From: Psammoneis japonica
Taxonomy: Eukaryota
Direction: 5' to 3'
Length of the DNA: 20,000 bases
Assembly: GCA_008632985.1 (NCBI GenBank)
Contig: QPGO01000100.1
Span: 288,037-308,036, forward strand
A program made the translations under genes and the position numbers. Shown piece after piece: positions 196-19,350 of the stretch; the first letter of the stretch is position 1, and each line of letters opens with the position of its first letter. The notes under the pieces are model-generated. The model was not told the origin of the DNA. It was given only the letters and a program-made list of their open reading frames with translations, and did not search any database.

Positions 196-1272
196 GGATT
201 TCTTTTTTGAATTGTGTGATTTGTATTCGTATTTTAGACAAAATGGTTGGTTATACATCCTTTGGTTTTGATTGTTTTGTCGTTGTTCAAGTTTGCGGCA
301 AGTGGTTATTATTACTTTATTTTTGTACTGCAAGCTCGCATGTCTTGTTCCTACAATAGCGGCTGTTATCGATTCTCATTTCCAAGAGAAGTGGAAAAGT
401 CCAAATCATTCTTGCGTGTGTTGAAATAGAGCAGAACTAGTCTCTATAGAGAGAATCAGAGATAATAGAGAATCTCTATAGTTAGTTAGTAGCTTGATCT
501 CGAGAGAGTAGTTAGTTCGTTCGTCGGTTGACTCGTCATTTCACGATTTCAACACGATGTTGCCACATTGATGTAGTGGCGTCAATCTAAATCCATATAC
601 ACCACGAGATTTGGCCAAGGCAGCTATACATTGTGAACTCTAGGTTGGCGTTGATTTTTAAACTCGGTTTTGCTTTGATATCATCTCTAGCTCAATGTTT
701 TAGAGTTTTTCCCTATAGTTTTGTACAACTTGGACGAGACCTGCATGAAATGGGGCGTCGTGTGTCATGATGGGACCCATCATCTTGATCTATCTAGAGT
801 GTACTGTACCACGAAGCGAAAGAAGCGCGGCGGTTACGATGGGCAATTAAAAAAATGTCAATAATTGAAGTAAATAAACACGTGGAATGTGGTCTCTGAC
901 CTTATTGCGTGGCTGAAGAAAACACGAGCTAAATCGCTGTCACTTCCAAATCTCCCTCCGACCTCATCACAACATCAGCTGAAAACAAACACCAAAACCC
1001 GCCGTCGTTCTACAGTCCCGGTTCATTTCAGGAGAATCATACCCCATATCCAGCCCAACATTGAATGTTGTAAAAGGTGACAACACCATCTTCCCCTCTC
1101 TCGGGCGGCACGATCGATGCGGGGGAGTTGTGTTTTTGGTGCGTTTCACGCAGAAATCTACGTGTCTGGTGCTTGACGTTGATGCTTCCTCTCGATGGAT
1201 GCCTCAGTTTCTGCTCTCGATTCTCTCACAATCTTTTCTTTGACCAGGAAGTAACACAGTCAAGACATCGCC

Positions 1273-2720
1273 ATGATTGCCTTCATGAAGAACCTTGTTG
1301 TCATCTCCCTTGGCATTGCTGCCGGTGCCGCGAGTGCTGGTCCCTTTGCCCGCCCGCTTTCGGCCGTCTTTGACTCGACGGTGCAAGGTGTGTTGATTGC
1401 TGTGAAAGCAAGTCAAGACATGCTTCACATTGCTTTGGCCATGACCACAATTTTTGCGCCGATCGAAAGCCATGATGACTCCTTCATCCGCCTCCCAAAA
1501 CATCCTCCGCAACACCACACCTGCGAGCATGCCCGTTGAAGCTCAAATCAGGTCGAGCATCTATTGTGTGTCTTTTGACCACAAGGACTGCGACTCCACC
1601 CTTCTTCACAACATCATTCGAAACTGCACACCTGTGGACGACGTGCCAGTTGAAGCTCTAAAAGCCTCGAGCTCTGTCTGCCAGTCTTCCTTCGACTTGT
1701 CCTTGGAGCACGAAATCGATTTGTCTGGCCGTTTCCAAGAAATCTTTCAAGAGCACGTGCCCACCGCAATGATGCCCATCCTGACATTTTCCGACACTTG
1801 CAAGATTTTGTCAAACTGTGCCATTGAGACCACGTTGAAGTTGCACACGACACTCCATGAATTCTCTTTGAAGACCACCAAGACTGTTCGTGAAACCGCT
1901 TCGAGCTTGCACAAGATCATCCATGACTCCTTGAAGACCTTTGTCACAAAGATGCAAATTCAGGCTTGCATTTGGAAAGAACACATGATGACGCAGCTTC
2001 AGACACCAAGATTGTCATTGGAATGTTGGTGGACGACAATTTTCAAGAATCAACAAATGGCTTTGTCACGCTTGTTCAAACTCAGGCTTGTGCTCTGCAT
2101 GAAAAATACGAGACGATGCTGTTTCAGACACCAAAATTGTTCTGCATCCAGAACATTGGTGGACAAGAGTTCAAAACTTGTGGAAGAGCTTTTAGTCTGG
2201 GTGCGAGTGTGGGCGAGCGAGATGTCAAGAGTTGGGGACATTCCTTGTGTCCCGATCCGAATCATGCGGTGAATTGGGTTGGTTGTCAGACACAGGGTTT
2301 GGAGTTCCAAGTCGCCAGTTGTCAGATGATGCAGCAGGTGTCCTGTGCAGACACAAATGAAAATTTATCCATCTCTGTCATAATTCACATGCTGGGTTGG
2401 TGTCCATTGCTCCATCAAAAAGGTTGTGCCGCAAACCGTGTCTCCCAAGAACGACTTCCGCGCGCGACTGCCTGATGATGATCCAAGCTGCCTTTGCCAG
2501 TGCAGCTTCAGACAGACCCACAGCACTTGCGTGGCACAGAACCTGTCGGCATCACACTCGCACAAGAGGAAACCGCAGAGAGGGAAGGCTCTGGCGCATG
2601 CCAAGATGACTTTGATTGTTGCAAAGAACACGAACAACATGCACCGTGCCAGTCGGCAAGACTCACAAGTGTTTTCGGCTTGCCCAGACGCATGTAACGC
2701 ACAGTTTGAGACCTTCTAAT
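1273..2720 (+). pseudogene. Degenerate gene of unknown family with a hydrophobic N-terminus and internal repeats, split over several frames
   Basis: Successive overlapping + ORFs (1273-1539, 1454-2272, 1966-2475, 2426-2719); signal-like start MIAFMKNLVVISLGIAAGAASA; internal ~122-bp repeat (1939 vs 2061); almost no Tyr. No family recognised and boundaries are approximate. Confidence 0.35.
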
Positions 2721-2779
2721 GTCGCAGACGCATGCTGTGAATGTGAACTCTGTTGATGCAGTGGATTGAGCTGTGGTCA

Positions 2780-3433
2780 TCGTGCCAAATTTGGTCACCA
2801 TGAATTTCTTGCGGGGACTGCGACAGGCGTTTTCAACGGGGGTTCAGCAATTGAGAAGCTGTGTCGTGTGTGTCAGCCTCAAGCGCTTGCACTCTTTGGA
2901 TCCAAAAATGTTGCAGCAGCTCACAGACTTTAAGCCTGAGAGCATCATGCCCAAATCTCTGGCCAGCTGATCAACTGGAGGATCAGATTTGAGGCCCTCA
3001 GTGTCAGCCTGCTGGGACACAACTGGCTCTTTGCACTGATGAATCTTGGTCCTTGCCGAAGAGAGATTGCTGTTGCTTGAGAGTTGATCTGCTGAATCGA
3101 TTTCATGCGCACAGTGAATGCGAAGCCATTGAGCCACAACGTGAGGTCTGGCTGAGACACTTCTTTGCCCGTGGGCCTTGCGATGGAGCAGCTGATGCAA
3201 TTGCCGAGAGCAGGTCGCTTTGCAAGAGTGTCGGTTTGGCAAAGGCCATTGCAGACATGTGGAATCGGATTTGGTCCAATGCAACCCCATGGAGTGGCAA
3301 GAGTTACGTCAAGGAGAACATCACGACTCTCCTCGGCATAAAAGTCACCCACCGTGACTGCAAATGAGCCATCATCCCTCTTGACGGCACTTTCATGATG
3401 GACTTTGGTGATTTTGTCACCAAGATTTGCCAC
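2780..3433 (-). pseudogene. 5'-truncated, frameshifted fragment of a VWA-domain protein (post-VWA region and Vwaint-like C-terminus)
   Basis: VTVGDFYAEESRDVLLDVTL resembles the GDLYAEExRD motif that follows VWA domains. In other frames: HVVAQWLRI...ARTKI...DQLARDLGMMLSGLKSVSCCNIFGSKECKRLRLTHTTQ and NACRSPRKKFMVTKF, resembling the helical tail ending in HxxQR. No MIDAS motif seen upstream. Confidence 0.7.
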
Positions 3434-3949
3434 CTCTTGGTTTTGGTCACGTGACGGGCCTGTAGAAAACCCAACGAGTTTGATGACTTTCTTGTCACGT
3501 GCTTTGGAGCACTCTCAAGTCGCTTCTTCTTGCTGATTGACAGAGAAGGGATGACCACGTGTGTTCGACTGTCGCGACTGAGCAGGAAAGTGTGAACATG
3601 GCGAGGTCACGTGCATTCTGCAGCAAAAGTGAACTTGATGAGTTGGCAATGGGAACCTCTTCATTGTTGCTTCACTTCTTGGTGCGCCAACTGTCAAGTG
3701 TGCATGAAATGTCGTGTGCTCGCACTCAAAAGAACGCGACCATGACGTCAAGCTCATTGCTCTTACAAAACTGCTTTCCACCCGGCCTCGGTCTAAAATC
3801 AATGTGCCATCAGTGCCCACATGGACATCATTCCAGAAAAGCACGGGGTGTCAGTCTGGCTGGGCAAAAGAGTCCAAAGGACATCACAAACCCACTGTCC
3901 ATCAAGTTTTTGTCTGGCTTCGGAGTCCAGTGGCTAGACTCTTGTTCCA

Positions 3950-4819
3950 GTTCTAAAGCTTTCAATTCATGCAACGGCGGCACATTCTCCATCACTCCCG
4001 GGTTCCAGTTTCTCCCAGATCACCCCCATCATTGGCTTTTTAGGTGGTGGCTCAATTTGCATCTGCTGAGTTGGCGTTGCAATGTAGTCAGAGAGGGTGT
4101 CGCAAGGGCTTGGACAAAGTTCCTGATCGGAAACAACCTGGCAGTCATGAACCAAAGATGCAACTGGCATGCCCAAGTCGATGACTCCAATCTGGTGGAG
4201 CACAGCCCATTCCAGGTCAAAGCATCCATGTCCCTTGCCAAAACGCAGCCCATCTCGGTTGACGACTGAGGCTCCTGCAACTGCCAAATCTAATTTGCTG
4301 TGCCTCTGACGAATGTCCGACAACGAAACGCATTGCCGACATCTTTGCAGTTGTCCAGCAAAACAGTTGCACTGGCGGTGCCGGCAGTCTCTCCATCTGA
4401 TGGCCTGATTTTCAAAATTACCTTCTGCATCCCACCTGTTGGCATGACAACCACCTTGCCGTCTTGTCCTTCTGCGCATCCCAGCAGCTTCTCGAGACAG
4501 TTGTCAGGTGTGATGAAGATGGTTTTTGCTTCTGAACATGCTTTCATTTGTCACAATCTTTTCGTTGCAAGTTCGCTGCCTTCAAAGTCTGGAATGAAAT
4601 GGTTGAAGTCACAGCCATGACACTTGTGAGGTTTCGCCACTCGCTCCATTCTCGTCACACCCACTTGGCGTTGCAGCCTTGCGCCAAGTTGCCACGTCAT
4701 TTTGTCCCACTGACAGCAGCTTGCAGTGGACGGGAGGTGCAGGCGCGAGGGACAGCTGGTTGTTCTTCACTGGCATTTGTCATGGATTCTCTGCTTTTGC
4801 CCATTGTGGAGGCACCCAT
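3950..4819 (-). pseudogene. 5-formyltetrahydrofolate cyclo-ligase-like (MTHFSD-type) pseudogene
   Basis: Motifs in the expected order across frames: RVAKP..DFNHFIPDFEGSELATKRL, TIFITPDNCLE, LDLAVAGASVVNRDGLRFGKGHGCFDLEW, VHDCQVV, DYIATPT, GVIWEKLEPG/VMENVPPLHELK. In-frame TGA at 4551-4553 and several frameshifts. Confidence 0.85.
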
Positions 4820-5290
4820 GGATGTTCTGTTCCGCAGAAATGTGAAAGGCAGAATCTCTGGCCTGGGGTGGCAGTCGCGTGGATTCCTTCTCCATTGACC
4901 GTCATCAAAAGCAACACCACAGAAACATTCCTGCCAAGGCAGTTGCACATTTAGGAAATGAAACGTTCTTCCCAACACCGGCAGAAGTGAAGGATTCTTT
5001 TCGAACCTCGACGGTCAATGGCGGGTCCAATCACAAAACACAAAACATCTCGCAGTGGAGTCTCTGCTCTCTGCTCGCTGCAACAAAGAGTGAGTCCATT
5101 TTCATCAGGAGCTGGATGAAGCCCATGGTACAAACTTAGAGACAACGGGTCTAACGGCACCAGCGCCATTGTCGAGAATCAATCATTAGATTTTGATGAT
5201 GCTCTCTGCAGATGTTGCAGAACGTAGGTTCCACGTAGAAGTAATGCTATAAATCTCTCCCCAGCGTTTGAATTAACAATTTCTTACCCG

Positions 5291-5347
5291 GTCTGACATC
5301 CGTCTGACATCCGTCTGACACCCGTCTGACATTTTTTTTTGTCAGAC
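5291..5347. repeat. Four GTCTGACA copies at 11-bp period plus one inverted copy
   Basis: GTCTGACA at 5291, 5302, 5313 and 5324; then a T-run; then TGTCAGAC at 5340-5347. Confidence 0.95.
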
Positions 5348-5378
5348 TACTCACAAAATACACGAAAAAAATTCGTTT

Positions 5379-5418
5379 TGAAACGCCCGTGAAACGCCAG
5401 TGAAACGCTCGTGAAACA
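5379..5418. repeat. Four TGAAAC(G) copies at 11-bp period
   Basis: TGAAAC at 5379, 5390, 5401 and 5412 (units TGAAACGCCCG / TGAAACGCCAG / TGAAACGCTCG / TGAAACA). Confidence 0.95.
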
Positions 5419-5706
5419 TTTGTGTGAGAATTCTGTATTCGCTGAGGATTGTTTTTGCGTAGGATTTCTACGGAGAGCTACGACGTACTGTACCTATCTC
5501 CCCACGTTATTTTGCACCTGCACCCGACTGCGCTGTTTTTCTGAAAAGTTCATTCATCGAACCAACGACAACAAGCACAGTTGTAGTTTCCCTAACCACT
5601 AAAATTCACAAATCATTGCATATCTGTACTCTTCAGCAACAGCAAGAAAAACAAGACAGAGCGAGGTGTGTTGCGAGAGTCAAAAGAGCGACAATAGAGG
5701 CGATTG

Positions 5707-6996
5707 ATGTTTTGCGTCCTTCTTGGCCTTGTTCCTCCCAATTTGGATGTTTGGAAAAAAGTAAAGGAGCAAATAATAACAACAACAAGTAGTGCTGCTC
5801 GTGATGGTAATGACGACCATGTGAATCTTCATCTCGAGTGGAGAGGTGAATCGCTAGCCACCGACGACGGGACCCTGACATTGCTCGTCGAGGCAGTAAG
5901 TGATGAACAAGCAACGCCGGAATCAATACGAGAACTTGTCGAAAAGGAGTTGTCAAACTATTCTCAAGCAGACGACATTTCGTGTGAAGTGTGGGCCTCG
6001 GCTCCGGCGCCCTTGCCTCTGCGCCCATTGGAAAGTGATTACATGGATCTTTTTCATATCCATACCGACATGATGGTTCGACTGAAACGACGACAAGAGA
6101 CGACAGTACCACCACTGTGGATACGGCAAGCAGAACGATGCGTCAATGGGGAATTCTCGTACAACACAATGTGTTGAATGAGACTCAAGTACAAGAGTTG
6201 CGTCTCCTCGTGGACGAGGCAGTTTTGCAAGCCGAACAATCCCTTGCCAAACACCGACCCGACATTGTCGTAGGACGAGATGTCTTTTTGTTTCAAGAAA
6301 TGGCGTCTCGGAATCTGGAGCGGTTTGATCTTCGTCTAACTGGGGATGCGTCCGACTTTGTAGAAGACCATATTCTGAACAACACGGCCGTGTCGGCCTT
6401 GCTGGAAGCAATTTTGGGAAAGGATGACGACATTGATTTTGACTTGTCCGTGGTGTATTCTCGGCCGGGAGCTTGTACTCAAGGTTGGCACGCCGATGGT
6501 AACCATCAAGTGGGTGCACTCGATGCTGGATGGACCGCCGACGGCTGGAAAACGTCGTTGGCGGATGCCTATGCCGTTTGCATGTTTATCCCCTCATTGA
6601 TTTAAACCAGCATGTCGGATTTACCCAATTTTGGCCGGCCTCTCATCAACACCGTGACTTGGTGGGTTTTGGAAAAGTAGCCGAAATCACGCAAGCCACC
6701 TTGGATGGGACATGCTGGCGGGAAGCGCAATCTGGTATGACTACCGATTGCTTCATCGTGGAATGCCCAACCAATCGACCGTTGTTCGTCCCGTCGTTCA
6801 AATTATTTTCAAAAAGAAATGGTACATTGAAAAAGCAAATTATGGAACCGAACCAATTATAGCCGCAGTACAGACAGGAATAGTAGAGTTTAGATTTCGA
6901 ATTACTCTTTTATCAACTACGTCGTTGCATCCATCCGTCCTTTATACGAGACGACAAAGGAAACGACCAATCGTCAAGATCATGGCGATACTCTAA
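5707..6996 (+). CDS. Phytanoyl-CoA dioxygenase (PhyH)-like Fe(II)/2-oxoglutarate dioxygenase; 3 apparent frameshifts (assembly errors or pseudogene)
   Basis: QGWHADG (HxD), VCMFIP/LIDL..GFTQFWPASH, GSAIWYDYRLLHRGMPN and RPV motifs occur in consecutive ORFs. Frame changes near 6065, 6592 and 6713. The true stop may lie near 6885. Confidence 0.8.
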
Positions 6997-7167
6997 AAGC
7001 AGCGGCAGCGCTAAACAAAAACAAGTATTCTAGTTTGAATTATGACTATTAATTTTTTCTTCCTACACTGCTTTTATGCTTTCTTTTTGAAGTTGCTTCT
7101 TGTTGTTGCTGTTGATATTGCCCCCCCTACGAGTTCATTCCCCTACTCCACCCCTACTACACACTAA

Positions 7168-8045
7168 CTACACAAGGGATCGCTTGACAAGTTCTTGATG
7201 GAACACACCCTTGATTTCTCGTGCCATTTCGTAAACCGCCGAACCCTTTTGGTTATACGTCAGGGCATTGTCAAAGGTCAAGTTCACGTCGGATTGAAAC
7301 TGTTCCAACGTTTCATAGCTGCTGAGCTTCTTTTCGACGGTACCAGGTCCATGGGAGTCTTGATGATTTCAAAGTAATCGGGGATTTGAAGGAATACCGG
7401 ATCGACGGGATGATTAAAGACCCATCCGTGATCATGAGTCTTGAGTGAGCGGAGGATTTCCATACACATGGATCGAAGGGCCGGGCTCATGACTGGCTTG
7501 TCGTCGTTGTTGTCGTCGTCGCTCCATGTGATTCGTGCTTTCTTGACTGTGGGAGTTACAATGGGACAACTACTGTCGGTACTGTTGCTACCATGGTCAT
7601 CATCAAATGGTAAAGGCTCAAATGCATCGTCCTGATCTCCTTGAAAGACGTCTTGATAGGTAGTAGTCGCTTTGCGTTTCTTGTCTGGAGGAATCACGAC
7701 TCCGGCAACACGGGTAGTCCTACTATTATTCTCCGTCTCTAATTTCAACCGCTTAGCTTTGGCTCGTCCAATCGCATGTCGGACGGGGCCGCAGGTCTGG
7801 CACGTGACATCACGACAATTGCGATAATGAGTCAAAATGTACCGGCTGCTCATACAATGGCGCACCGTGCACTGTCTCTTTTGGCACGACACCAAATGGT
7901 TCCAAAGCGCCTTGAGCTTGGTACAATGGACTGTGACGGGGCACGATTCGTGTTGACATTTCGACGCGTGTCTCAACAACAAGAGACGTTGTTGTTTGTA
8001 GCGGAGCTTCTTATCGGGTACTACTAGAGATGATTGTTCCGTCAT
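7168..8045 (-). CDS. TAZ zinc finger + bromodomain protein (p300/CBP-like modules, no acetyltransferase domain); one frameshift at ~7343
   Basis: [13 protein letters not shown]...CPVTVHC...LWNHLVSC...[16 protein letters not shown]....C..C is a TAZ finger. [28 protein letters not shown] starts a bromodomain, which continues after adding one G as GTVEKKL...[23 protein letters not shown]...LV* (TAG at 7168-7170). Confidence 0.9.
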
Positions 8046-8542
8046 TGTGTGGGACTGGAAGTGACGACTCCAAATGGCATGTATCGGAGTTGCGCTTATT
8101 TTGATCACGCCAAATGAAATGGTGCTCTGGAATTTTTTCGATTTGCTCGAAACTCCCTCCGACCTGCCCTCGCGTAGAAATGTACCAGAATCTTACGTAC
8201 GACCGTTAGATCGGGTTTGCACGACTGCGGACCGCGGTGAATCGCGGAAATGACGTGTTCCGCATAGCCTCGGACTTTGAAATTATCGCGGCCTACTAGC
8301 TAGAGTACAGTCTACTCTAAACCCTCAGCTATGGCGCACAAAACTCCTTACAGTAGGGCCTAGTAGGTTGACGGAAAGGTGATTTCTAGAGTTTGCCAAA
8401 CAATTAGCCTGCAAGCTACGTACTATTAGAGAGATTTAGAAGCCAGTATTCGTCAGGGAAAAATGAGTGGCTGCTCAGTCCAGGAGAGAAGCAAAGTACT
8501 CTCTGAAAGGAAAAAGGTAAACGGCAAATTATTATGCGGTAG

Positions 8543-9746
8543 TTATGATTGTCGAATAACAGACAAGAAGAATTCGCCCAAGGTTTGGTACCACTCTTCA
8601 GTCATGTGCACATTGTCGGCGTGTTCATTCACCGCCGAGGCTTCAAATGGGTCCAAAAAGGTGGATTTGTGTTGAAACTTGGGTGTTGTGGCGAGAATGT
8701 CCCCGACGGCGTGATTCCAATCTCGAGTTTCATTGAACTTTTGAGGATAATCCTCGGTAGCTGGCGCCGTGTTGCCCAAGAATATAATGTGTTCACATTG
8801 AGGTTCAACAGTTCCAAGTACCACTTGGCGTTCTTTTCAAACATGGGTTGTGTGATATTTGGTATAGCCGCATCATGGTGACCAAAGCAAACGACACAGA
8901 CTGGCTTCCCCCACTGTTCCACATTGGATTTCGTGTTGAAGGTTTTCGATAAGAAGGAGGCAACATTTTCTTGCGTTGTGTGAAACTCTGGAGACTGCAT
9001 TTCCACATCTCGAGCAAATTCTACTCCAAAGTACCCTCCATAGATGAGAGGCTTGGTACTATTGCAAGACTTTTTAGGCGCTCGTCCGTAGTCACCACAT
9101 ATTCTGTCTGACACCCGGCACATCTGTGCAGTAGGGGTTCTCTGCTCCAAAAGACGTTGGTCCTTCGGCATTTTGAAGATAGTTGGGGCGTCCACTTTTT
9201 CTTACGTCTATAGGCTACATCAAATATCTTGTTGTTGTGACAGCGGCGGGCCACCTCATGGCGAAAGCTGTACTTGTTTCCACAGGTTTTTGCGATTCGT
9301 TCCGACGCTTGCTTGAAAGATACTTTCCGACGGTCGTTCTCCGAGCCAGTCGCATAACGGTAGAGTCCCGAAAAATAACCATCTTTGCCCATCCGTTTTG
9401 ATCCAGGCTTTGATTTTTCTTTTTAAACGGGAGGCGCGACGAGAGAACCTTTCTGCATTCAAACTGGTCATCAGGTGACCACTCGCACGACATTTTAATC
9501 TCATTGCTGTCGTCAATCGTTACCTCTTTTTTGTGGTTTGACATAACTGTGCTTTTGGATCCTCATCGAATGCCAGTGAAACTATAACGCGATCCGCAAT
9601 CAGTCCAGCCAGAAACGCCAATGTCAAAATCAGCCACACCTTTTTCTTGTGCAACACCGACGGAGCGACACTCTTTTGATCAGTCGTTACCATTTTCAGT
9701 TTCAGCATAGTAAGGAGTTTCAGCAACTAGGGATAAATCTCCCCAT
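8543..9746 (-). pseudogene. Multiply frameshifted paralogue of the 10228-11532 gene (SGNH/PC-esterase-like type II membrane protein)
   Basis: Shared blocks RWLFFG/DST, VEFARDVEMQSPEF.TTQENVA, GKPVCVV..G.HD..IP.IT, KWYL, EPQCEHII and a C-terminal D..H(M) motif, distributed over at least 6 ORFs. Confidence 0.8.
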
Positions 9747-10227
9747 TGAAGAATCGTCTCCCTCAAAGGTCGGATCCGTACAGTTTCGTTTCATCGTGCA
9801 GCCTTCTTCTAGAGAGAGTCCGAGTACTAGAGTAGAGCCTTCTTCGCAGAAAAAATGAGACTGGGAGGTGCGGCGGGGTCATCGAACTGAAAATGACTGG
9901 TCACAGTCATTGAGTCTGGCAATTTTAAACTATGCAGTACGTATAAATGGATGTTATGTTTTAGTACCGAATTTCAAATTTTGATTCCTGCTGGCGTGTT
10001 TTCGAGATGTCCAATCTACATTCGTCTTGGTAGAGGATCTACATGTGTGGTTGAGGTGCGAAAGCGAACCTTTTCCTTCACAAACCACCTTAAAGTGAAA
10101 GGAAAAGGCCTCGGGTACTTTACCGAAGAGATAAGCATAGCTGTATCCATCACCTTTAAGCTCAACGTTACGATGTTTGCTAGTATTAAACGTCGTTCTC
10201 GGCTGAAATCGGCGTTGACGGAACCCC

Positions 10228-11532
10228 ATGAATTCAAAAATGGAGTTCCAGCCACTGGTCGTTGAATCAGGTGATGACTACCGAGACGACGGCGATCCCA
10301 AATCGTCTAAAACGAACAGCAAAATCCACTCTTCTCCCACAACCTTATCTACAAAACGCCTGCGGCTGCTCGTGCCATTAGTTTTTCTATGCGGAATTAT
10401 TGCAAGCCGAACCGTTACAATACTATTCTCGAGAACTAATTCCAAGGAAGCCCCCAGCTTCGAAATCGACGACAACAAGGAAGAAGAGGGAGCGGAAGAG
10501 TCTATCATAGACTCGGACAAGAGCATGACGCCCATTAGTACGGCTTCTGTGGAGGCTACCAGCCAGCCAGCGAAAATCGAGTGCATCTGGGGTCCTAAAG
10601 CGCAAGACGAGTGTAAAGATTTCCTGAATGCTCGCCTTCCTTACTCTCAACCAAACAGGTCGCCTAGCAGTAGTCGGATTGGCCATCGTTGGTTATTTTT
10701 CGGTGACAGCACAATGACACGGCTGGTTCGGACAACAAATCTTAGTGTCTATCTGGCTCGCAAGGCAGCTGATAGAATCAACAAGGAATGCCCAGACAAG
10801 TTCGAATGTGACCTGCGGCTTGCAAAGAAATGCATGTACAACGAGAAATTTGATTTGGAATACCGAAGGAACATGGACTGGACACCTCCCGACTATTTAA
10901 ACAAGGCTGAGGGACCTAGAGATGTTCCAAATGAGCCCTACTGTGTAGATTGTGGGGGGTGCAGATACGAGTTTGTAGTCTGTAAAGATTTGGGGCCTAA
11001 CAGGACATGCAACGGTCTTGACGCACCAGTTACACATGGAGGGTTGATCACTGTGGAATTCGCTAGAGATGTCGAGATGCAAAGTCCTGAATTTCTAACC
11101 ACGCAAGAAAATGTTGCTGCATTCATGGCTCGCTCGTTTTCTCCACAATCGATTGTCGATTCCCTCGGCAAGCCCGTGTGCGTGGTAAATACTGGGACGC
11201 ATGACTCCAAGATCCCAAAAATCACAACAGAAAAGTTTATGACCAACCTCAAGTGGTATCTTGGTCTACTAGAGCCACAGTGCGAACACATTATATATCT
11301 TGCCACGGTTGCTCCCGAAGCAGATCGGTTCCCCGGACACATTGCCTTGATGTATGAATGGAATATCAAAGTCCACGAGTTTCTCGCCACGGATGCGAAA
11401 TTTCAAGAAAAATCTACGTTTATCAATGTATTCAACACTTCAAAGGAGGAGGAGCACGATGGGAAAATACATATGGAACAATCATGGTACGATGATCTCG
11501 CATCCTTGTTTATGCCACTTATTGATAAGTAG
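10228..11532 (+). CDS. Type II membrane SGNH/GDSL-like (PC-esterase/TBL-like) protein, putative polysaccharide O-acyltransferase or esterase
   Basis: Intact 434-aa ORF with one N-terminal TM segment (LLVPLVFLCGIIA), an acidic stem, WLFFGDSTM (GDS nucleophile), VVNTGTHD and C-terminal HDGKIHM. Confidence 0.75.
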   Translation: MNSKMEFQPLVVESGDDYRDDGDPKSSKTNSKIHSSPTTLSTKRLRLLVPLVFLCGIIASRTVTILFSRTNSKEAPSFEIDDNKEEEGAEESIIDSDKSMTPISTASVEATSQPAKIECIWGPKAQDECKDFLNARLPYSQPNRSPSSSRIGHRWLFFGDSTMTRLVRTTNLSVYLARKAADRINKECPDKFECDLRLAKKCMYNEKFDLEYRRNMDWTPPDYLNKAEGPRDVPNEPYCVDCGGCRYEFVVCKDLGPNRTCNGLDAPVTHGGLITVEFARDVEMQSPEFLTTQENVAAFMARSFSPQSIVDSLGKPVCVVNTGTHDSKIPKITTEKFMTNLKWYLGLLEPQCEHIIYLATVAPEADRFPGHIALMYEWNIKVHEFLATDAKFQEKSTFINVFNTSKEEEHDGKIHMEQSWYDDLASLFMPLIDK

Positions 11533-11781
11533 ATAGCCCGAAGCCCAAAAGGGATGCATTTGCAGCGGGGAACGAAGCGTTCACGGGGTTAAGATCTAAA
11601 AGTAGGGGGACTTTATGACACACACACTAAGATATTTTATGTCTAACAAGAGCGACTGCTCCTCCCGATTCATGCTGTTGAAAACGTTCGGGTTGTCCTG
11701 AAAAAAATCTTGGATGGCTCCTGCATGAGGATTTTGGTAGTAACCCCTCACGCTTCTAGTCGAGCCACCTTTGTTCAGAAA

Positions 11782-12498
11782 CTACTCAGTCGCCTCAAGG
11801 AACCCAGATCTCCTTAATTATTCGTCGTTACGATGGTTCTGATAGAGTCTTGTAAGAATTTCATTTTGTTGGTGTCTTGGGGAGTAGTCACACGAATGAA
11901 CAGGTCAGAGCAGCAGCAGTCGTCAAGGTCCGCGAACTTCTTGACGAAGTAACGGACTCTTTGTTCATAGTCCGTTGGAATTTCTGCAAAGGCCTTGGAT
12001 GGTTCCTGGTCTTGAATGCCGCTCGACAGAATCTGCTTTGCAAACAGGTCCTTTTGATTGAGCACGAGGATTTTGGAAATATCGTTTGCTTCTTTTGAAT
12101 CACAAAGCCTCTCCCAACTCTCCAATGCGCGCTTCATTCGATTCTTCCTTGCGTGCTTAGTGACACTTTTTGCTTTATCTGGACCATACTCGTCGTCATT
12201 TGGCAAGTCTGCAACGAACAAGGCCGCATCCCTGTATTTGAGATACTTGGTCCAGTCACCATTTGGTTGACTTACACACAAACGAGACACGTCGAGAAAC
12301 TCATGCTCAAATCCATCAATCAGGTACCTATATTTGGTAATGAAAGATGAAATTGATTCAACTCTCTCGTACCTTCCATATCGCTCTCGTATCGCTCAAA
12401 GAGCGCCACGAGAGCTTTAGGATCTCCCTCACAAGAATCCTGACTTTGTCCAGGTTCGCTCGCTCCAAGACATGCTCTTCCGGCGCAGGTGCAATCAT
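11782..12498 (-). pseudogene. Degenerate G-alpha-like gene, copy 1 (about 3 frameshifts; pseudogene or assembly errors)
   Basis: ALFVADL..DDEY...NRMKRALESWERLC...ILVLNQKDLFAKQI...VRYFVKKF...FIRVT...DTNKMKFLQDSIRTIVTTNN/LRRSGFL; high DNA similarity to 13469-14293. Indels near 12430, 12395 and 11815. Confidence 0.8.
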
Positions 12499-13468
12499 GG
12501 TTACTGTACCAACAAAATGCTTTCTCTAACTATGTCATTTTCATAAAATGTCGCATTACGTAGGAAATGAAGTTCACGTTTGCTACACTGTATGCAACAT
12601 TTTTTCTTCTTGCTGCCACGTCGGGTTGGGGGTTCGCGCTTCGATCCTTGCTTCGAGATGGTTGATTCTTGTTTTTGTTTGTCACCCGCGATCTTTCAGT
12701 CATGGGTCGTGCGATAGAGGTGGAATCAGGAATCTTTCGATTTACACCTGTTTCAACAAAAATGAAGGAGCGATAATAAGGAGCAACACCGCAACACCAT
12801 GGCGGCGCCATCTGCCGTAGGAGATTGATAGCCGGGCTTCTTTCTGCTGTTACTAACGCAGTCAGACATGAAGGTGATTTGAAGGTCTGAAAAGGCCATC
12901 AAACCGCTCCTAAAAGACACGAGATAGACGCATGAGGAGAAAGGCGCGTCCGTGCCGGGCGTTTACCTACGTTCAAGGAGAAACTTAGAGACACACTACA
13001 CACCCCATGTAAACAAAGCGTTTGATGGATACCTAAGGAGGCATTTTATGTTGAAAGGATAGCAAGATACAGCGAGATTCACGAATTGCTCATCACATCA
13101 ATCTGATCGCTTTGGTCTTGTTCTCCCTGTGAGCGTCCCACAAAGAGAGATCATGAATTAACTTCATAAGTTGTAAGTATAGTCTTTGTTCTCGTAAGTT
13201 GTACTGAAAAGCACCATCCCACATGACGAAGACAAAAACCTTTGCACAGGGAGTTGGATACGTGGTACAAGTCTTTGGACTTGGTGGATTACGATGAAAA
13301 GAACATACTTTCTCTCTGATGGGTGGGATCACATAGTTTGTTGATCAATCGGTGCACCAGAACAGCAAAGTCAGTCTCTCTCACATGATTTCTTCCATCC
13401 TGTTGTCTTTTCAGGAAACTTATGCTTTGACTCTGGTCTCGAAATGTACAGTATTTTGTTGGTATAAA

Positions 13469-14293
13469 CTACCGTGGAAAAGAACGCGTGACGAAAGCTC
13501 GATTCATCATTCGACGTTCAGCCTTTCCAAGCCAGTTCTTGACTCTGCGCGCAACAGACGCAGTGTCTGCTGAGCCATCCAGCAACCCAGATCTTTGTAA
13601 ATTTCCAATCATGATGATGGATCCGATACATTCTAGTATGAAGTCCGAGTTGGCGCTATCGTGCGGAGAAGTCACACGAATGTACAAGTTGGAACGGTGA
13701 CAGTCTTCACATTCTTTGAACTTTTGGATGAAGTACCGGACTCCCTGTTCAAAGTGTTTTGGTTTCCCTGCAAAGTCCCTGAATGGTCCCTGATCTTGAA
13801 TGTCACTCGACAGAATCTTTTCCGCAAACGTATCCTTTTGATTCAGTATGAGGATTTTGGAAATCCCCTTTGCTTCTGGTGAATTGCACAGTCTCGCCCA
13901 ACTCTCCAAGGTGCGAGCCATTCGATTCTTCCTTGCCGGTTTACTATCACTGTACTCTTTGCTGGAATCGCAGTATTCATCATAGTCGGCTAAGTCTGCA
14001 ATGAACAAGACCGCGTCCCTGTTTGATAGATACTTGGTCCAGTCACCGTTCGATTGACTTGCAAACAAACGAGACACGTCGAGAAACTCAAGCTCAACTC
14101 CATCAATTAGGTACAAGTACCTATATTTGGTAATGGAATCTGAACTTGATTCAACTCTCTCGAACCGTCCATATCGTTGTCGTATCCCTTCAAAGAGTGC
14201 TGCTTGTGCTTTCGGATCTCCCATTCCGATTACGAGTATTCTGACTTTGTCCTGGTCCGGTTGCTCCAAGACATGCTCTTCCGGTGCAATCAT
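13469..14293 (-). CDS. Degenerate heterotrimeric G-protein alpha-like protein lacking the helical domain, copy 2 (intact, 274 aa)
   Basis: The G-alpha C-terminal half is recognisable: DAVLFIADLADYDE, NRM..TLESW..LCNS, ILILNQKDTFAEKI, GVRYFIQKF, YIRVTSPHD, IIMIGNLQRSGLL. The G1, G3, G4 and G5 boxes are altered. Confidence 0.85.
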   Translation of the reverse strand: MIAPEEHVLEQPDQDKVRILVIGMGDPKAQAALFEGIRQRYGRFERVESSSDSITKYRYLYLIDGVELEFLDVSRLFASQSNGDWTKYLSNRDAVLFIADLADYDEYCDSSKEYSDSKPARKNRMARTLESWARLCNSPEAKGISKILILNQKDTFAEKILSSDIQDQGPFRDFAGKPKHFEQGVRYFIQKFKECEDCHRSNLYIRVTSPHDSANSDFILECIGSIIMIGNLQRSGLLDGSADTASVARRVKNWLGKAERRMMNRAFVTRSFPR

Positions 14294-14536
14294 GGTTGCC
14301 AATTGTGCTTTCTCTATTTGCGTTTAATTCTATAAAGTGTCGCGGTAATGAAAGTACTTCACCTTTCTATGCAGTTTGTGAATGCAGTATTTGCTTTTTC
14401 TTTGAGTTCGCATCTATTTTCAATGCGCTCTGCTTGTCAGAAGAATTGTAAAGCGCGGTGTCAGTCGTGGGTGATGGGTCGTGGGAAATGCGACGACCCG
14501 CCTTACTTACAGTATGGCCCTCTCTCTACTCTACCG

Positions 14537-14596
14537 GTAGCTACTCTCTACTCTACTCTAGCTAGCTAGACTAGATAGAGAGTAGAGAGTAGCTAC
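14537..14596. repeat. Perfect 18-bp inverted repeat in a CTAG/TAGAG-rich low-complexity island
   Basis: GTAGCTACTCTCTACTCT (14537-14554) pairs with AGAGTAGAGAGTAGCTAC (14579-14596); internal palindrome TCTAGCTAGCTAGA at 14557-14570. Confidence 0.9.
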
Positions 14597-15718
14597 AGAA
14601 GATTGTGAAGTTGTAGATTATATACGAGGACCCTCTTCTCACTCAATACGCTCTGTGTATAGTCATAAATTATTATCTCAAATCGTTTTAGACATTCAAA
14701 CTCAATCCATTTCGAAAGGAAAAGCTGACGTACTGTGATAACGCCATCGTTACAATCGGCGACCTCACTGGCTTATTCTTTTTGACCGTTTGGAATCGGT
14801 CAGCAAGGCGCACTACCGCGGCGGTGACGCTAGTAGTAAGTGTTGTAGGCTTTGGGCTCGGCATTTGCGCGGAAATTTTGATTCTGGTTTCACGTCGCTC
14901 ACTACTTGAGTGCAAAAACGAAAACGAAAGGGAGACTCCATCCAGGTTTGTCATAGTAGCCGGGACGTGGATACTGTAGGAACTTGAAATTACTCTCTAG
15001 GAGATTTTAATTGCTGTGGCGGCTTTTCCTCTCTCCAGGCCGGTACAGATGCAGCGAGCTCAAAACGACCGTTGATGGCTCATTCATCTCATTTTCCTTG
15101 TGAAATGTTAACACCAACAAAAGACTCCTCAAATTACAGTGGGCTTATATTATAAACCACTTGAAGGAACGAAAGCCGATTACTTGGCGAACTCGGTAGG
15201 TAAAGAAGTTGAACCAGCACGGGCCAAGAAGAAAGATCGTGGCTACAATGACGAGGATAGTTAAAAAAAAGCATAAGTATTTGTGGCTGCTATTAATAGA
15301 GGTATTGATGCAGACAAAACATATTTGCGGGCTGCAAGCTAAAGCAGAATACAGCTACCGCACTCCAAAATGGGCAATTACAAATATGAGCCATGACGAA
15401 TTCATGAAGAGGAAACTCAAAATAGAAGTACGATGGTCAACCCAATCCTTAGATATCCATATACTTGAGGAATACGTTGCGTTTGCGACTATCATTTGTC
15501 CCTGTCCGCAGAACAAGCAGCAGCCAAGGCAACGTCATACTGGCTACAAGAGAGAGCAGGTACGACACCCCTGAGAGCGCATTCAACAGATGTCCCAAAT
15601 CTCATAGACATCCACACAATTCTAATCTAAAACAGACACCAGGAATGCAATAGTATCGTGAGATTTGCCCTGCAATTGTTCGGACAGTGCAATGATACCT
15701 TCACACCAATCGTCGAAT

Positions 15719-16835
15719 TCAAGGACTGTGTCGTTTTAACCGTTTGAAAGGTGGAGGAGCAACGCTTTCTTCCACTATGGCGACGCTAGTATCATAGATT
15801 TTGGTTTCAGGGTTCATGCGGAAGAGCTTGTATACAACCGTCAAGGGCGACGTATTTTCAGCAGCGGCAAGCATGAATGGAAAGAGTCCGTTCTGGTCTT
15901 GGACTGCAAGCAAAGCCGGATGAGCGTTGACCAGAGTGTCAACGCCCTCATCCCATTCTCGGCCGCTTTCGATTGCTAGATGCAAAGGCAGCTTTCCATC
16001 TTGGTTTGGTTCCTTAGCAAGATCAGGCTTTGCATCCACCAGTATCTGCATCGTTGTTTTCAGAGTTCCGCATCGCCGTTCCGTCCTTGCTGCAACGGCC
16101 GCATCATTTATCTTAAAAGTGGAACAGCAACACAATGGACTTTCACAAGTGTGTTTGTCAAAAGAAGCAGATGCAGCAACATGGATGGGCATGTTACCAT
16201 CCTCGTCCATCTCTTTTATTTGATCACGATTTCCTACAATTGCAAGTTGGAGTAGACTTGGTGGACAGTGTTCGATCCCACAACATGCGTGGAACAGTCT
16301 GAATGCCTTTCCGTCAGACAAAAAAGTGTCTGCAATCGACCGATGGTAAAACGCTTTTAGCACAAGCGTCAGCCTCTCGAAAAAATCATTGTTTAAGTCC
16401 CGACTCTCATCACGGAGGGTATTTGCTGCAATGCTTGCAAGAGTACTTTCCCCAGTTTCGATGAGACGGCATGCTTGTCTCATTTTCTTGTGATTGCACG
16501 TGCACAACAGTGTCAAAGCATTCATCCTGCGATTTTTGGCCACGCCGGTGTGATGGTTAATAGATCTGCACGTAACAAGCTTTGTTGCATCCGGCCCATT
16601 CTCAGTCTGCAAACCGGACTGGAGCATTGCTTTCAGCAACATTCGAACAACAGCCACCGAGCTTCTAAGAATCGCATGATTCAACGGAATCACAGCATTC
16701 GCATTGCGAACGCTCACGATGGACAGCATTCTGCTCAACAGAGCAGCAACGAAATGCTCCTCATGTGGGGATACGTTGACGCAGCCAAAGTCAATTGGTG
16801 TGCATCCGGTCCGAGGGTCGCTTGCGGTTGCGAGA
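15719..16835 (-). pseudogene. Ankyrin-repeat-like gene, 3' part, separated from its start by the transposon
   Basis: DEDGNMPIHVAA, NQDGKLPLHLAIESG..W, QDQNGLFPFMLAA...L.VVYKLFRMNP are ankyrin-like repeats. It joins 19244-19350 in frame once the element and one TSD are removed. Confidence 0.85.
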
Positions 16836-16842
16836 CTCCGAA

Positions 16843-19243
16843 TCAAACCCCCAGAAAATTATATTTTTAATTTCCCGCCAGTGCTAGAGCTGTTCCATTA
16901 ATTGCAACTAGAGCTAGAGAGGCTGCAATTAAATTGCAATTAATTGTACAATTGCGACCCAGCAATTACCGCTAATCTTCGTCATCATCGTCATCATCAT
17001 CGCTCGCCACCATGGCCGCCATGGCTGCAATGAGAGCCTCCTCTTCAATCCTCTTGGATGCTCGGCTTTCCTTGTTTTTCTCCAACCTCTTGTTGTTGGC
17101 TTCAACCACATCGCTGACACTCCAGAGATTCTTGTTTTCCTTCAGAAACAAGATCATTTCAAAAACGAGTGGAGACAAACCGGCCCTTCGCTTGGTCATG
17201 ATGTCGTCGGCCTTGCTCCACAGTTGTTCCACCACTGCTGCACTGCCCATGATGAAGCCACAATCAATGTACAAAGACTCGTTCTCCATTTCCCTGGCAG
17301 CCCGCTTGTTGTCTGCTTCCACCGCCTTGTCGATGTCGTCGTCACTGCTGTCGCTGCTGTCATCGCTCTCCTCGTCCCCTTCTGCAGAACCACCCCCACG
17401 ACGTTCAAAGCTGGATTTGAGCAGAAACCTGCAAGCCTGCTTTTCAGCTTTAGTCAATTCGCTCTCGTAGGCCACTCCTTTCTGAATCTTAGCCACTCCT
17501 GTCTCAAAGTCGGGGTGCGTGGACAAGCCGTTGTCGGGCTTGATCTTTTCATCTCCCAGGGTGCACTTGCAGTGACTGCTTTTGGGCTTGTGCGCTTTCC
17601 TTGTCACCTTCGAATGCAGCTTGTTCAGAAGATCTTGGCACTTGCTGAGCGATTTCTTTTTGCTCTGCATGTGGGCCGACACCTTCTTCATCTGCTTCAG
17701 ATGCCGGCCGTGAGTCTTGCATTTCCCAATGAAGGACATCTCTGCAGTTTCCTGGTGTTCCTGCAGCTTGCCCGACTTGTCCTCTTCAACAAGTTTGTGG
17801 CAATGAGGGTGGAGCTTCAGGTGGGACCCGAGGGCTTCTTCCGACCCTGTCCACTTCCTTGTGATGGATGCAGCCTTTGCACGGACGCTGCTGTGCTTGT
17901 CAGGCTTGGCAGCGGCATTTCGGAGTGCAGTGGAACATTTGGCGGAGGCCCTCACAGATGAAGATAGATTGCACACCTTGGTGGTGCAATCCTTCAGCTC
18001 CTCATTCCGTGCCATCATCAGGTCATTCTGCAGCGCCAGGTTGTGATTCTTGCAAGACACATGAGGATGGCCCATGTCGTTTGCAACCTTGATGTTGACG
18101 GATGCACTGTCGGCGGCTTGACAAAGGATGAACGATGTGGCATGCTTGTCACACACGTCGAATGTTTCTTCAATGAAGTTCCGGTGGTGGTCCGCATCAA
18201 ATGACACCGCTTCGAGGTCCTTGTCATCCTCGTCATCCTCCGACATGGCCGGCATGGGTGATGCCAACAGCAAACGCAACTCGTGCATCTCTCTTGTTTC
18301 CTCGGTTCTGTCTGCAATGATGCGCAGCTTCTTGTTGAAAGAAGAATGCAGGGCCACATGATGGACACCGCACTTGGTCCAGCCATCACAAACAACTTGG
18401 CAACCCGGCGCCATTTCCATCACATCAGTGATCTTCCCCTCTGCTGTCTCAGCAAGGTGAAACATGGTGTCCAGCACCGTCTCTGTGCCAGACACTTCAG
18501 GACACTTTGCATGAGACCGTTCGACCTCATTCGTCACGCAGCTGACTGGACGATTTAGAAGGACGATTTTCTCTATCCACACATGGAGCGAGCGGTGGAA
18601 ATTAGTGACAGCCTGAAATTTCTGTTGCACTGGTGCCAAGTTGCCCTCTTTTGCCTCTGCTTCCTTTGCTTCGGCTTCAGCCAATTGTTTTCTGCGCTCA
18701 GCAACAATGACAGGAGCCTGGTCCTTGATGCAAGAGAGCCAATGGTTGCAGGGGTTGGCAAACCCATCTTTCTTCTTGATGAATTTCGAGTGGTTCTTGC
18801 AGTTTGGGCACGTGATTTTATGTCCTTTTACGTCCTCATCGAGAAGCGTGACGGTCGTTTCTTCAACATCCATGACAAGGAGCACAAGTTCTTTGCCCTT
18901 GGGCAAGTCTCCTGCTTGCTCCATTGTGGAGGAAGGAAGTGGGATGCAATGTGACATGCCGTTCACGACGACGACGACAACAACAACAAACAAACTGAGC
19001 AAAAGTGCCAGAACCACACCGACAATTCCTCACCACGGAGTCATGACCGTGTGGAAAACCACGTCTTTTTTGCACTGAGAAAGACACAACAAAGATGCAA
19101 TTTTTTATGTGCAATGTTCAGCAATTAAGCACAATGTAACTCAAGCCAATGCATTGAGGAACAGGTGAACGTGCTGCAATTAATTGACAATTGCAGTTGA
19201 TTGCAACCAATTGCATTGGCAATTGATTGTTCTGGGGGTTTGA
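16843..19243 (-). mobile_element. Complete hAT-like DNA transposon, 2401 bp, perfect 14-bp TIRs, 7-bp TSD CTCCGAA
   Basis: TCAAACCCCCAGAA (16843-16856) and TTCTGGGGGTTTGA (19230-19243); CTCCGAA at 16836-16842 and 19244-19250; GCAATT/AATTGC subterminal motifs at both ends; internal transposase ORF. Confidence 0.93.
16972..18924 (-). CDS. hAT-like DDE transposase (~650 aa), open frame but heavily Tyr-depleted and probably inactivated
   Basis: BED-like finger CPNC...NHWLSC; DGWT; ADSASVN; CKNHNLAL (CxxH); TRKW; GSAAVVEQLWS; RRAGLSPLVFEMILFLKEN. Only 2 Tyr. Start taken at MEQAGD (18924). Confidence 0.88.
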   Translation of the reverse strand: MEQAGDLPKGKELVLLVMDVEETTVTLLDEDVKGHKITCPNCKNHSKFIKKKDGFANPCNHWLSCIKDQAPVIVAERRKQLAEAEAKEAEAKEGNLAPVQQKFQAVTNFHRSLHVWIEKIVLLNRPVSCVTNEVERSHAKCPEVSGTETVLDTMFHLAETAEGKITDVMEMAPGCQVVCDGWTKCGVHHVALHSSFNKKLRIIADRTEETREMHELRLLLASPMPAMSEDDEDDKDLEAVSFDADHHRNFIEETFDVCDKHATSFILCQAADSASVNIKVANDMGHPHVSCKNHNLALQNDLMMARNEELKDCTTKVCNLSSSVRASAKCSTALRNAAAKPDKHSSVRAKAASITRKWTGSEEALGSHLKLHPHCHKLVEEDKSGKLQEHQETAEMSFIGKCKTHGRHLKQMKKVSAHMQSKKKSLSKCQDLLNKLHSKVTRKAHKPKSSHCKCTLGDEKIKPDNGLSTHPDFETGVAKIQKGVAYESELTKAEKQACRFLLKSSFERRGGGSAEGDEESDDSSDSSDDDIDKAVEADNKRAAREMENESLYIDCGFIMGSAAVVEQLWSKADDIMTKRRAGLSPLVFEMILFLKENKNLWSVSDVVEANNKRLEKNKESRASKRIEEEALIAAMAAMVASDDDDDDDED

Positions 19244-19350
19244 CTCCGAAGCTCTTCCTGGGAGCCAGTTGCATCAACGAATTCAATGGCTCTCGTCCAG
19301 TCCCTTTGGCGCACATAATTGAGGAGTGCCCTTTCATCATTGTTCTCCAT
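19244..19350 (-). pseudogene. 5' part of the interrupted ankyrin-like gene
   Basis: MENNDERALLNYVRQRDWTRAIEFVDATGSQEELR continues as SLATASDPRTG from 16835; the reconstructed CDS is 107+1117 = 1224 nt (407 aa). Confidence 0.85.

Follow-up and report, generated by a model that had tools for sequence, protein, structure and literature searches.

The locus and its transposon

The DNA considered here, called the window in the following, is a stretch of 20,000 bp from contig QPGO01000100.1 of an assembly filed under Psammoneis japonica. It harbors a DNA transposon of the hAT superfamily, whose interior is almost free of the dinucleotide TpA, and a second block with the same footprint. The scarcity of TpA in the transposon had been noticed in an earlier analysis made from the letters alone (the original prediction), which attributed it to an A>G mutator acting at TpA in repeats. 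The features of the transposon and of the second block are collected in Table 1.

Table 1. Features of the hAT transposon and of the second TpA-poor block (positions in the window)
Feature	Positions	Strand	Evidence or content
hAT-superfamily DNA transposon, 2,400 bp	16843-19242	- (transposase strand)	8-bp direct repeat, 13-bp inverted ends and empty-site joint
Left target-site duplication, ACTCCGAA	16835-16842		identical 8 bases at 19243-19250
Right target-site duplication, ACTCCGAA	19243-19250		matches left copy
Left terminal inverted repeat, CAAACCCCCAGAA	16844-16856		reverse complement of 19230-19242 without mismatch; preceded by an extra T (16843)
Right terminal inverted repeat, TTCTGGGGGTTTG	19230-19242		pairs with left end
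3' subterminal region with GCAATT-type repeats, TpA kept	16843-16971		11 TpA in 129 bp
Transposase open reading frame (ORF), 661 amino acids, 2 Tyr, stop codon TAG	16972-18957	-	relatives and Hermes-like fold
TpA-poor zone of the element	16974-19105		10 TpA versus 75.9 expected from background rho
5' leader with subterminal region, depleted of part of its TpA	18958-19242		4 TpA in 285 bp versus 13.0 expected, P = 0.004
Second TpA-poor block, same footprint	1160-5128		22 TpA versus 151.5 expected
Broken relic of the 5-formyltetrahydrofolate cyclo-ligase family	3970-4649	-	tblastn: two pieces in different frames and an in-frame stop
von Willebrand A-domain (vWA) protein relic, C-terminal third	2925-3436	-	tblastn, two frames

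The classification as hAT is settled by the DNA. The element has the 8-bp target-site duplication and the short inverted ends by which the superfamily is recognized, GCAATT-type subterminal motifs are present at both of its ends, and the empty site is on record: contigs of runs X1 and X2, both from one public sample, join position 16835 to 19244, with 7-9 letters at the joint that fit either side. The 2,408 bp skipped at the joint correspond to the element (2,400 bp) and a single copy of the target duplication. The presence of the empty site in contigs of this sample makes the insertion polymorphic and probably young. Three sequencing runs, from one sample and one study, were listed, none of them holding RNA. 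An X1 contig covering part of the element (18135-19041) shows 22 differences to the window in 907 positions, as compared to 1-9 positions per 643-3,627 bases in the flanking contigs; it may derive from a copy elsewhere in the genome, a paralogue, rather than reflect faster change.

Loss of TpA from the interior of the transposon

Between 16981 and 19080 (2100 bp, GC 51.8%) there are 10 TpA, an observed/expected ratio (rho) of 0.08, and in the 600 bp from 10261 to 10860 there are 26 (0.66). The original prediction had given both counts exactly and had rightly described the two related dinucleotides, CpA (192; observed/expected 1.61) and TpG (200; 1.44), as abundant. Its statement that CpG is still common needs correction: the 92 CpG present amount to a ratio of 0.66, a third below that of the background (1.00). 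Background here means the window minus the two TpA-poor blocks, with 607 TpA in 13,302 bp (0.0456 per bp; rho 0.62). At this rate 95.8 TpA are expected per 2100 bp, and the Poisson probability of the 10 found in 16981-19080 is 4.8e-29. Segments of 2100 bp taken every 50 bp from 5200 to 16800 contain 77-125 TpA each. In six further ORFs of the window TpA runs at 25.7-46.0 per kb and Tyr at 0.9-3.6%; the transposase ORF, with 5.5 TpA per kb and 0.3% Tyr, lies below all six.

The fate of the missing TpA can be read from the other dinucleotides. In the TpA-poor zone of the element the departures from background rho are −66 for TpA, −47 for CpG, +53 for CpA and +44 for TpG, and at most 18 for any of the remaining 12 dinucleotides. 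In both blocks the deficits of TpA and CpG together are about as large as the surplus of CpA plus TpG. The counts support the view that the interior (the ORF and about 150 bp upstream) shed roughly 85-90% of its TpA via TpA>TpG and TpA>CpA, on both strands. Of the CpG of the interior, too, about a third was lost, likewise to TpG and CpA; the excess of CA and TG is fed by two processes, the TpA purge and ordinary CpG decay as in methylated DNA. The paired loss of TpA and CpG suggests that the purged DNA is, or once was, cytosine-methylated too.

C>T processes do not account for a depletion of this kind. Fungal repeat-induced point mutation (RIP) runs in the opposite direction to a change that depletes TpA and enriches CpA and TpG, and on this point, as for the deamination of 5-methylcytosine, the reasoning of the original prediction was sound. 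Less fortunate was its suggestion of error-prone repair of the polymerase-eta type, with a preference for WA>WG: ApA and ApG are at background level (+4 and +3 in the element, +16 and +6 in the second block), and polymerase eta was therefore rejected. TpC (+0.5 and −2.8 in the two blocks) and ApT are near background as well.

In two regions of the window, 1000-5100 and 17000-19100, long open frames overlap densely on either strand, and 43 stop-to-stop frames of at least 60 amino acids lie between 800 and 5300. These frames result from the absence of TAA and TAG in every reading frame. Gene callers would over-predict in purged regions, where they would report long false ORFs and "intact" genes that are possibly dead. 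The open 661-codon frame of the transposase is likewise uninformative as to function, because TpA>TpG and TpA>CpA never create an in-frame stop.

The transposase and its relatives

The transposase ORF contains the two tyrosines counted in the original prediction and also the two peptide strings quoted there, CDGWTKCGVHHVALHSSF and NPCNH. The protein has seven relatives of 39-51% identity (E 2.6e-174 to 3.7e-81), and looking up their clusters yielded no telling name. A Pfam search with the window transposase found no family; the Pfam model Dimer_Tnp_hAT matched two of the eight family members weakly (best E 0.041), the window transposase not being one of them. A structure predicted from the alignment of the eight sequences was poor (pLDDT 52.5), and with this low-confidence model Foldseek placed Hermes transposase at all ranks from 1 to 11 (E 2.6e-6 to 1.6e-3; TM 0.26-0.33). 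Protein language-model neighbors of the transposase carry hAT and BED families. A sequence-profile search of the PDB with the transposase family found no transposase; Mediator 15, which it returned with E 0.003-0.03, is not credible for a transposase and was set aside.

The seven relatives contain 9-23 Tyr (1.7-3.3%) as compared to 2 (0.3%) in the window transposase; they are not natively Tyr-poor. At the 10 columns that are mostly Tyr in the relatives the window has His four times, Cys three times, Val twice and Tyr once, so that the predicted replacement of Tyr by His or Cys is seen at seven of the 10. For three metagenomic relatives the DNA was available for comparison (rho TpA 0.49, 0.47 and 0.74; Tyr 2.3-3.3%). 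Where at least two of the three have TA at a codon-aligned site (15 sites), the window has TG at six, CA at five, TA at one and another dinucleotide at three. These 11 TG or CA in 15 bear out the proposed TpA-specific A:T>G:C change, by comparison and not as new mutations. Of the 146 sites with TA in at least one relative, the window has kept TA at 2 and has CA at 42, TG at 36 and another dinucleotide at 66; with each relative taken as the target instead, TA is kept at 10 of 117, 11 of 103 and 12 of 47 sites. CA and TG products being about equal on the coding strand, both strands were mutated.

At the 118 columns where all relatives agree, the window transposase differs at 11, the relatives' own range being 0-13. 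Seven of these 11 unique substitutions belong to the types expected (Y>C, Y>H, I>M, M>V in two places, S>G and K>E). The alignments show that the depletion is not native to the transposase family but a lineage-specific loss of TpA to TpG and CpA, by which Tyr codons became His and Cys codons.

A second TpA-poor block

The block at 1160-5128 departs from background rho by −130 for TpA, −91 for CpG, +95 for CpA and +114 for TpG, and by at most 32 for the remaining 12 dinucleotides (GpC +32, GpG −26). It has no sequence in common with the transposon, and a search for terminal repeats of the block found none. Its origin as foreign or selfish DNA is less clear than that of the hAT transposon.

The block holds two gene relics (Table 1). 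The cyclo-ligase relic matches Pfam PF01812 with E 1.1e-5 and 25.8 bits, under the cut-off of 27, and a Pfam search with 31 frames of the block gave nothing beyond this sub-threshold match. Its sole named relative is bacterial, and it has His and Cys at positions where the relatives carry Tyr. A Tyr-rich motif expected of 5-formyltetrahydrofolate cyclo-ligases gives no argument here, since the alignment shows that the subfamily has GKGHGFF in its place. The vWA relic has 19 relatives of 332-2000 amino acids (E 7.7e-25 to 5.5e-13), and the tblastn match covers only residues ~295-480 of vWA proteins of 510-545 amino acids.

The left part of the block is multi-copy: in run X1 up to 12 contigs overlap one position, and the summed contig depth, only a rough guide to copy number, is 447-959 versus about 55 elsewhere. 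A frame of 275 amino acids in this part (1445-2272) found 0 matches among 1.84 billion protein representatives and is probably non-coding. In run X2 there is a diverged copy of the block, which has TA at 8 sites where the window has CA or TG and shows the reverse at 1; the comparison comprises 35 of the 40 differences listed out of 845. Just outside the right edge of the block, at 5291-5332, lies an 11-bp tandem repeat of 3.8 copies.

Limits of the purge

On the 3' side of the transposase gene the boundary of the purge falls at the stop codon. The 129 bp from there to the left end of the element contain 11 TpA, more than the 5.9 expected at the background rate, and the 1,986 bp of the ORF contain, with the TAG stop included, also 11 (Fisher P = 1.1e-8). 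Host DNA directly outside the target duplication is unpurged. Abutting the transposon, at 15719-16729 on the minus strand, there is an ankyrin-repeat ORF whose rather low rho TpA of 0.38 and Tyr content of 0.9% are within the range of the other host ORFs.

Two readings of these sharp limits are possible: either the mutation targets the interior only, or only copies with intact ends keep moving and hence are those seen. The TpA that survive in the two blocks are enriched in the context CTAA/TTAG (12 of 32, versus 56 of 606 in the background; Fisher P = 3.4e-5), which may reflect a wider sequence preference of the mutator.

A more far-reaching idea, which we put forward tentatively and think doubtful, is that the mutator follows the expressed interior, from ~150 bp upstream of the start codon to the stop codon, guided by transcripts or by transcription, and does not touch the 3' end with its many binding sites. 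The hAT lineage, nearly free of TpA and yet still moving, as the empty site would indicate, would then have run out of targets and be immune to the host defence. If this were true, a moving hAT lineage without TpA would be the end-state of an arms race, one that has no counterpart in RIP.

Neighboring sequences

Between the two blocks lies a tandem duplication of a segment of a gene for a G-protein alpha subunit (11795-12502 and 13578-14297, 76% identical over 727 bp), with ordinary TpA. A host-type exon at 7284-8045 on the minus strand encodes a CBP/p300-like combination of a TAZ zinc finger and the beginning of a bromodomain. Only in one part of the window, 14501-15000, is TpA not under-represented (observed/expected 1.14). 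At 14551-14592 the summed contig depth reaches about 1,200-1,460, with many small indels and with loose ends in run X1; this is probably a dispersed A-rich repeat.

Origin of the depletion

The original prediction knew of no named system of this kind. In 2026, however, Mettrop et al. (bioRxiv 10.64898/2026.01.13.699255) reported the same spectrum, a TpA-specific hypermutation, from mutation-accumulation lines of the chlorarachniophyte Bigelowiella natans. In these lines 231 of 302 new single-nucleotide mutations fell into two integrated viral regions; of these 231, 230 were changes of the type A>G or T>C, every one of them at TpA. The rate in the viral regions was about 6e-7 per site per generation, ~1000-fold that of the rest of the genome, and the process was active in some lines only. 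The authors also described 124 clusters of TpA-poor, CpA+TpG-rich windows and 324 coding sequences low in TpA, among which DDE endonuclease and reverse-transcriptase domains are over-represented; the main hypermutable region, of 186 kb, is stated to be single-copy. As deaminase they proposed an ADAT2-like protein with residues linked to DNA editing, and the TadA-like deaminase of the original prediction is the same hypothesis. From the numbers of Mettrop et al. we calculate a rate of 211/(3,132 generations × 6,169 TpA), approximately 1.1e-5 per TpA per generation, at which 90% of the TpA would be purged within about 2e5 generations, an evolutionarily short time.

We consider it probable that the interior of the element bears the long-term footprint left by TpA-specific hypermutation of foreign or selfish DNA, as measured in B. 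natans. The comparison with the relatives agrees with changes of A>G or T>C confined to TpA, and their target, a hAT transposon, is selfish DNA. On this reading a host process turning TpA into TpG and CpA, the same as in B. natans to judge from the shared signature, would have produced both blocks. An adenine deaminase of the ADAT2/TadA type that acts on DNA would be its agent, as proposed in the preprint, and the mark of its targets would be "foreignness" or silent chromatin rather than copy number. A preprint passage assigns the transposons of B. natans to one H3K9me3+H3K27me3 state. By the cluster rule of the preprint (1-kb windows, TpA-poor and CpA+TpG-rich, the latter with a threshold of 1.52), the 1-kb windows starting at 2001, 3001 and 4001 pass with TpA and CpA+TpG values of 0.11/1.64, 0.11/1.55 and 0.08/1.59, and in the element 18001-19000 passes with 0.08/1.57. 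The block at 1160-5128 counts as a cluster by this rule; the transposon fits a low-TpA coding sequence rather than a cluster.

Several points weigh against this interpretation. The 1-kb window 17001-18000 narrowly misses the CpA+TpG threshold (1.46 versus 1.52; TpA 0.10). The TpA-keeping 129 bp at the 3' end are not predicted by a process acting on the whole element. None of the four conserved Tyr columns of the vWA relic has His or Cys (their letters are F, Y, Q and W), and of the 15 C>T or G>A differences of the diverged copy of the second block 8 are in CA or TG, barely above chance for a CA/TG-rich sequence. The likeness to the B. natans system rests on a shared signature. The evidence is comparative, and none of the 40 differences listed out of 845 lies inside the element. 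Over its whole length the window differs from the X1 contigs symmetrically, with 136 A>G, 137 T>C, 136 G>A and 156 C>T, so that no direction can be read from these counts. Finally, because TpA is its own complement, A>G and T>C chemistry are indistinguishable from the sequence.

This last point bears on a variant of the same process, in which the T before A would be modified (e.g. to 5-hydroxymethyluracil by a JBP/TET-type enzyme) or damaged and then misread or misrepaired as C. Since TpA is self-complementary, a TpA>CpA change appears on the opposite strand as TpA>TpG, and the two products are indeed about equal, on the coding strand at the sites with TA in a relative (42 versus 36) as well as in the excesses of the two blocks. 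In dinoflagellate DNA 5-hydroxymethyluracil is found preferentially at TpA and TpC, but TpC is not depleted in either block. Neither the window nor the spectrum given in the preprint separates thymine chemistry from adenine deamination; the presence of an ADAT2-like candidate with DNA-editing residues in B. natans speaks for the latter (Mettrop et al.), and we regard the thymine route as rather unlikely. A different question is whether the transposase has remained functional, its TpA-free state being a selected escape from a host mutator or nuclease that acts on TpA, with the end sequences kept. This would agree with a polymorphic and probably young insertion, with ends and subterminal motifs that retain TpA, with a number of differences at invariant columns within the range of the relatives, and with one of the two kept Tyr standing at a column invariant in all eight sequences. 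There is also a lean towards synonymous products: xTG exceeds xCA within codons (72 versus 41) and C|A exceeds T|G across codons (103 versus 75), counts for which the baselines are not known. However, an unconstrained saturating purge is estimated to change ~7-8% of the residues, so that a dead gene would also give 11 in 118; two columns with Tyr in all seven relatives were lost; TpA was retained in Tyr codons (2) no more often than in the other codon phases (4 and 4); and the block at 1160-5128 was purged likewise over clearly broken genes. We hold a selected escape to be unlikely.

In having the mutator act on repeats, the original prediction goes beyond the evidence. A homology-sensing mechanism, the mirror image of RIP, in which duplicated DNA is detected and mutated at TpA, would suit the multi-copy left part of the second block, and transposons are repeats by nature. 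In one sample, however, the element interior (depth 48.5) and the right half of the block (3336-4669; 67-73) are near single-copy and equally purged, the tandem G-alpha duplication is unpurged (rho TpA 0.47 in one of its copies), and the 186-kb region of B. natans is single-copy by the statement of the preprint. Repeat-induced mutation is thus very unlikely. Editing of A to I at the level of RNA by an ADAR-like or ADAT-like enzyme, fixed in the DNA via a reverse-transcribed copy, would fit the base next to the edited A. Fungal ADAT-type editing prefers U at that place. ADAR has the same preference, as noted in the preprint (Mettrop et al.). But the element has the inverted ends and the 8-bp duplication of a cut-and-paste DNA transposon, both strands were changed about equally, and the untranscribable relics of the second block were purged as well, which makes an RNA route extremely improbable. 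We give hardly any credence, finally, to the view that no special mutator is required and that the composition is native to a donor genome or due to selection acting on codon usage or mRNA. Most genomes have less TpA than expected, and so has the background of the window; however, the DNA and proteins of the relatives are not depleted, Tyr was replaced at conserved positions, the purge is just as strong in broken and non-coding sequence, and the host ORFs of the window are unpurged.

A host defence that rewrites TpA so far rests on one preprint and one alga (Mettrop et al.). If the window is not from Bigelowiella, the hypermutation system has a wider host range than reported. The locus is a compact and sharply bounded case, with defined ends, an empty-site allele and a purged interior beside an unpurged end of 129 bp. 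It gives base-pair resolution on where the process acts, which large viral inserts cannot, and is a natural reporter for what marks the target: transcript, chromatin or copy number.

Comparison with known systems

By rewriting TpA in invading DNA such a host process would be a mirror image of fungal RIP and a parallel to the defence by APOBEC enzymes. A search of the literature found no other report of TpA>TpG/CpA hypermutation; the other papers on genome defence that it returned concern C>T RIP. RIP, as known from Neurospora and other Ascomycota, is likewise a heritable hypermutation by transitions at specific dinucleotides, which inactivates selfish DNA and can be recognized from the composition left behind. 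It changes C to T mostly at CpA, creates TpA and stop codons, lowers the GC content, needs a duplication and is premeiotic. Here the direction is reversed, GC rises, stop codons cannot be created, and near single-copy parts were purged too.

AID/APOBEC3 and ADAR share with the process considered here deaminase-type editing of foreign nucleic acid and a preference for the neighboring base. APOBEC enzymes convert C to U on single-stranded DNA, typically with strand asymmetry, and ADAR acts on RNA, whereas here A:T>G:C changes occurred in chromosomal DNA, on both strands of a DNA transposon.

As a transposon the element resembles hobo, Ac, Tam3 and Hermes, the hAT member with a solved structure, in its 8-bp target duplication, short inverted ends, subterminal repeats and single transposase ORF of about 650 amino acids. 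Unlike known hAT elements it scores below threshold with the Pfam hAT models, and nearly all of its Tyr were replaced.

The closest counterpart is the B. natans system, described here from the available part of the preprint (Mettrop et al.). Both have an exclusive TpA>TpG/CpA signature that raises GC, TpA-poor and CpA+TpG-rich blocks of a few kb, and transposon-type coding as well as unannotatable sequence among their targets. In B. natans the targets are viral inserts of 25-186 kb, and the active regions have a rho of 0.45 or a raised TpA frequency; here the target is a small cut-and-paste hAT element at a polymorphic site, and the purge is near saturation (rho 0.08-0.13). That the purge ends with the stop codon and leaves the TpA of the 3' end in place, that CpG is co-depleted, and that the residual TpA favor CTAA/TTAG have no mention in that part of the preprint. 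The phenomenon is already described in the 2026 preprint, and the locus is a new, unusually well-bounded example of it.

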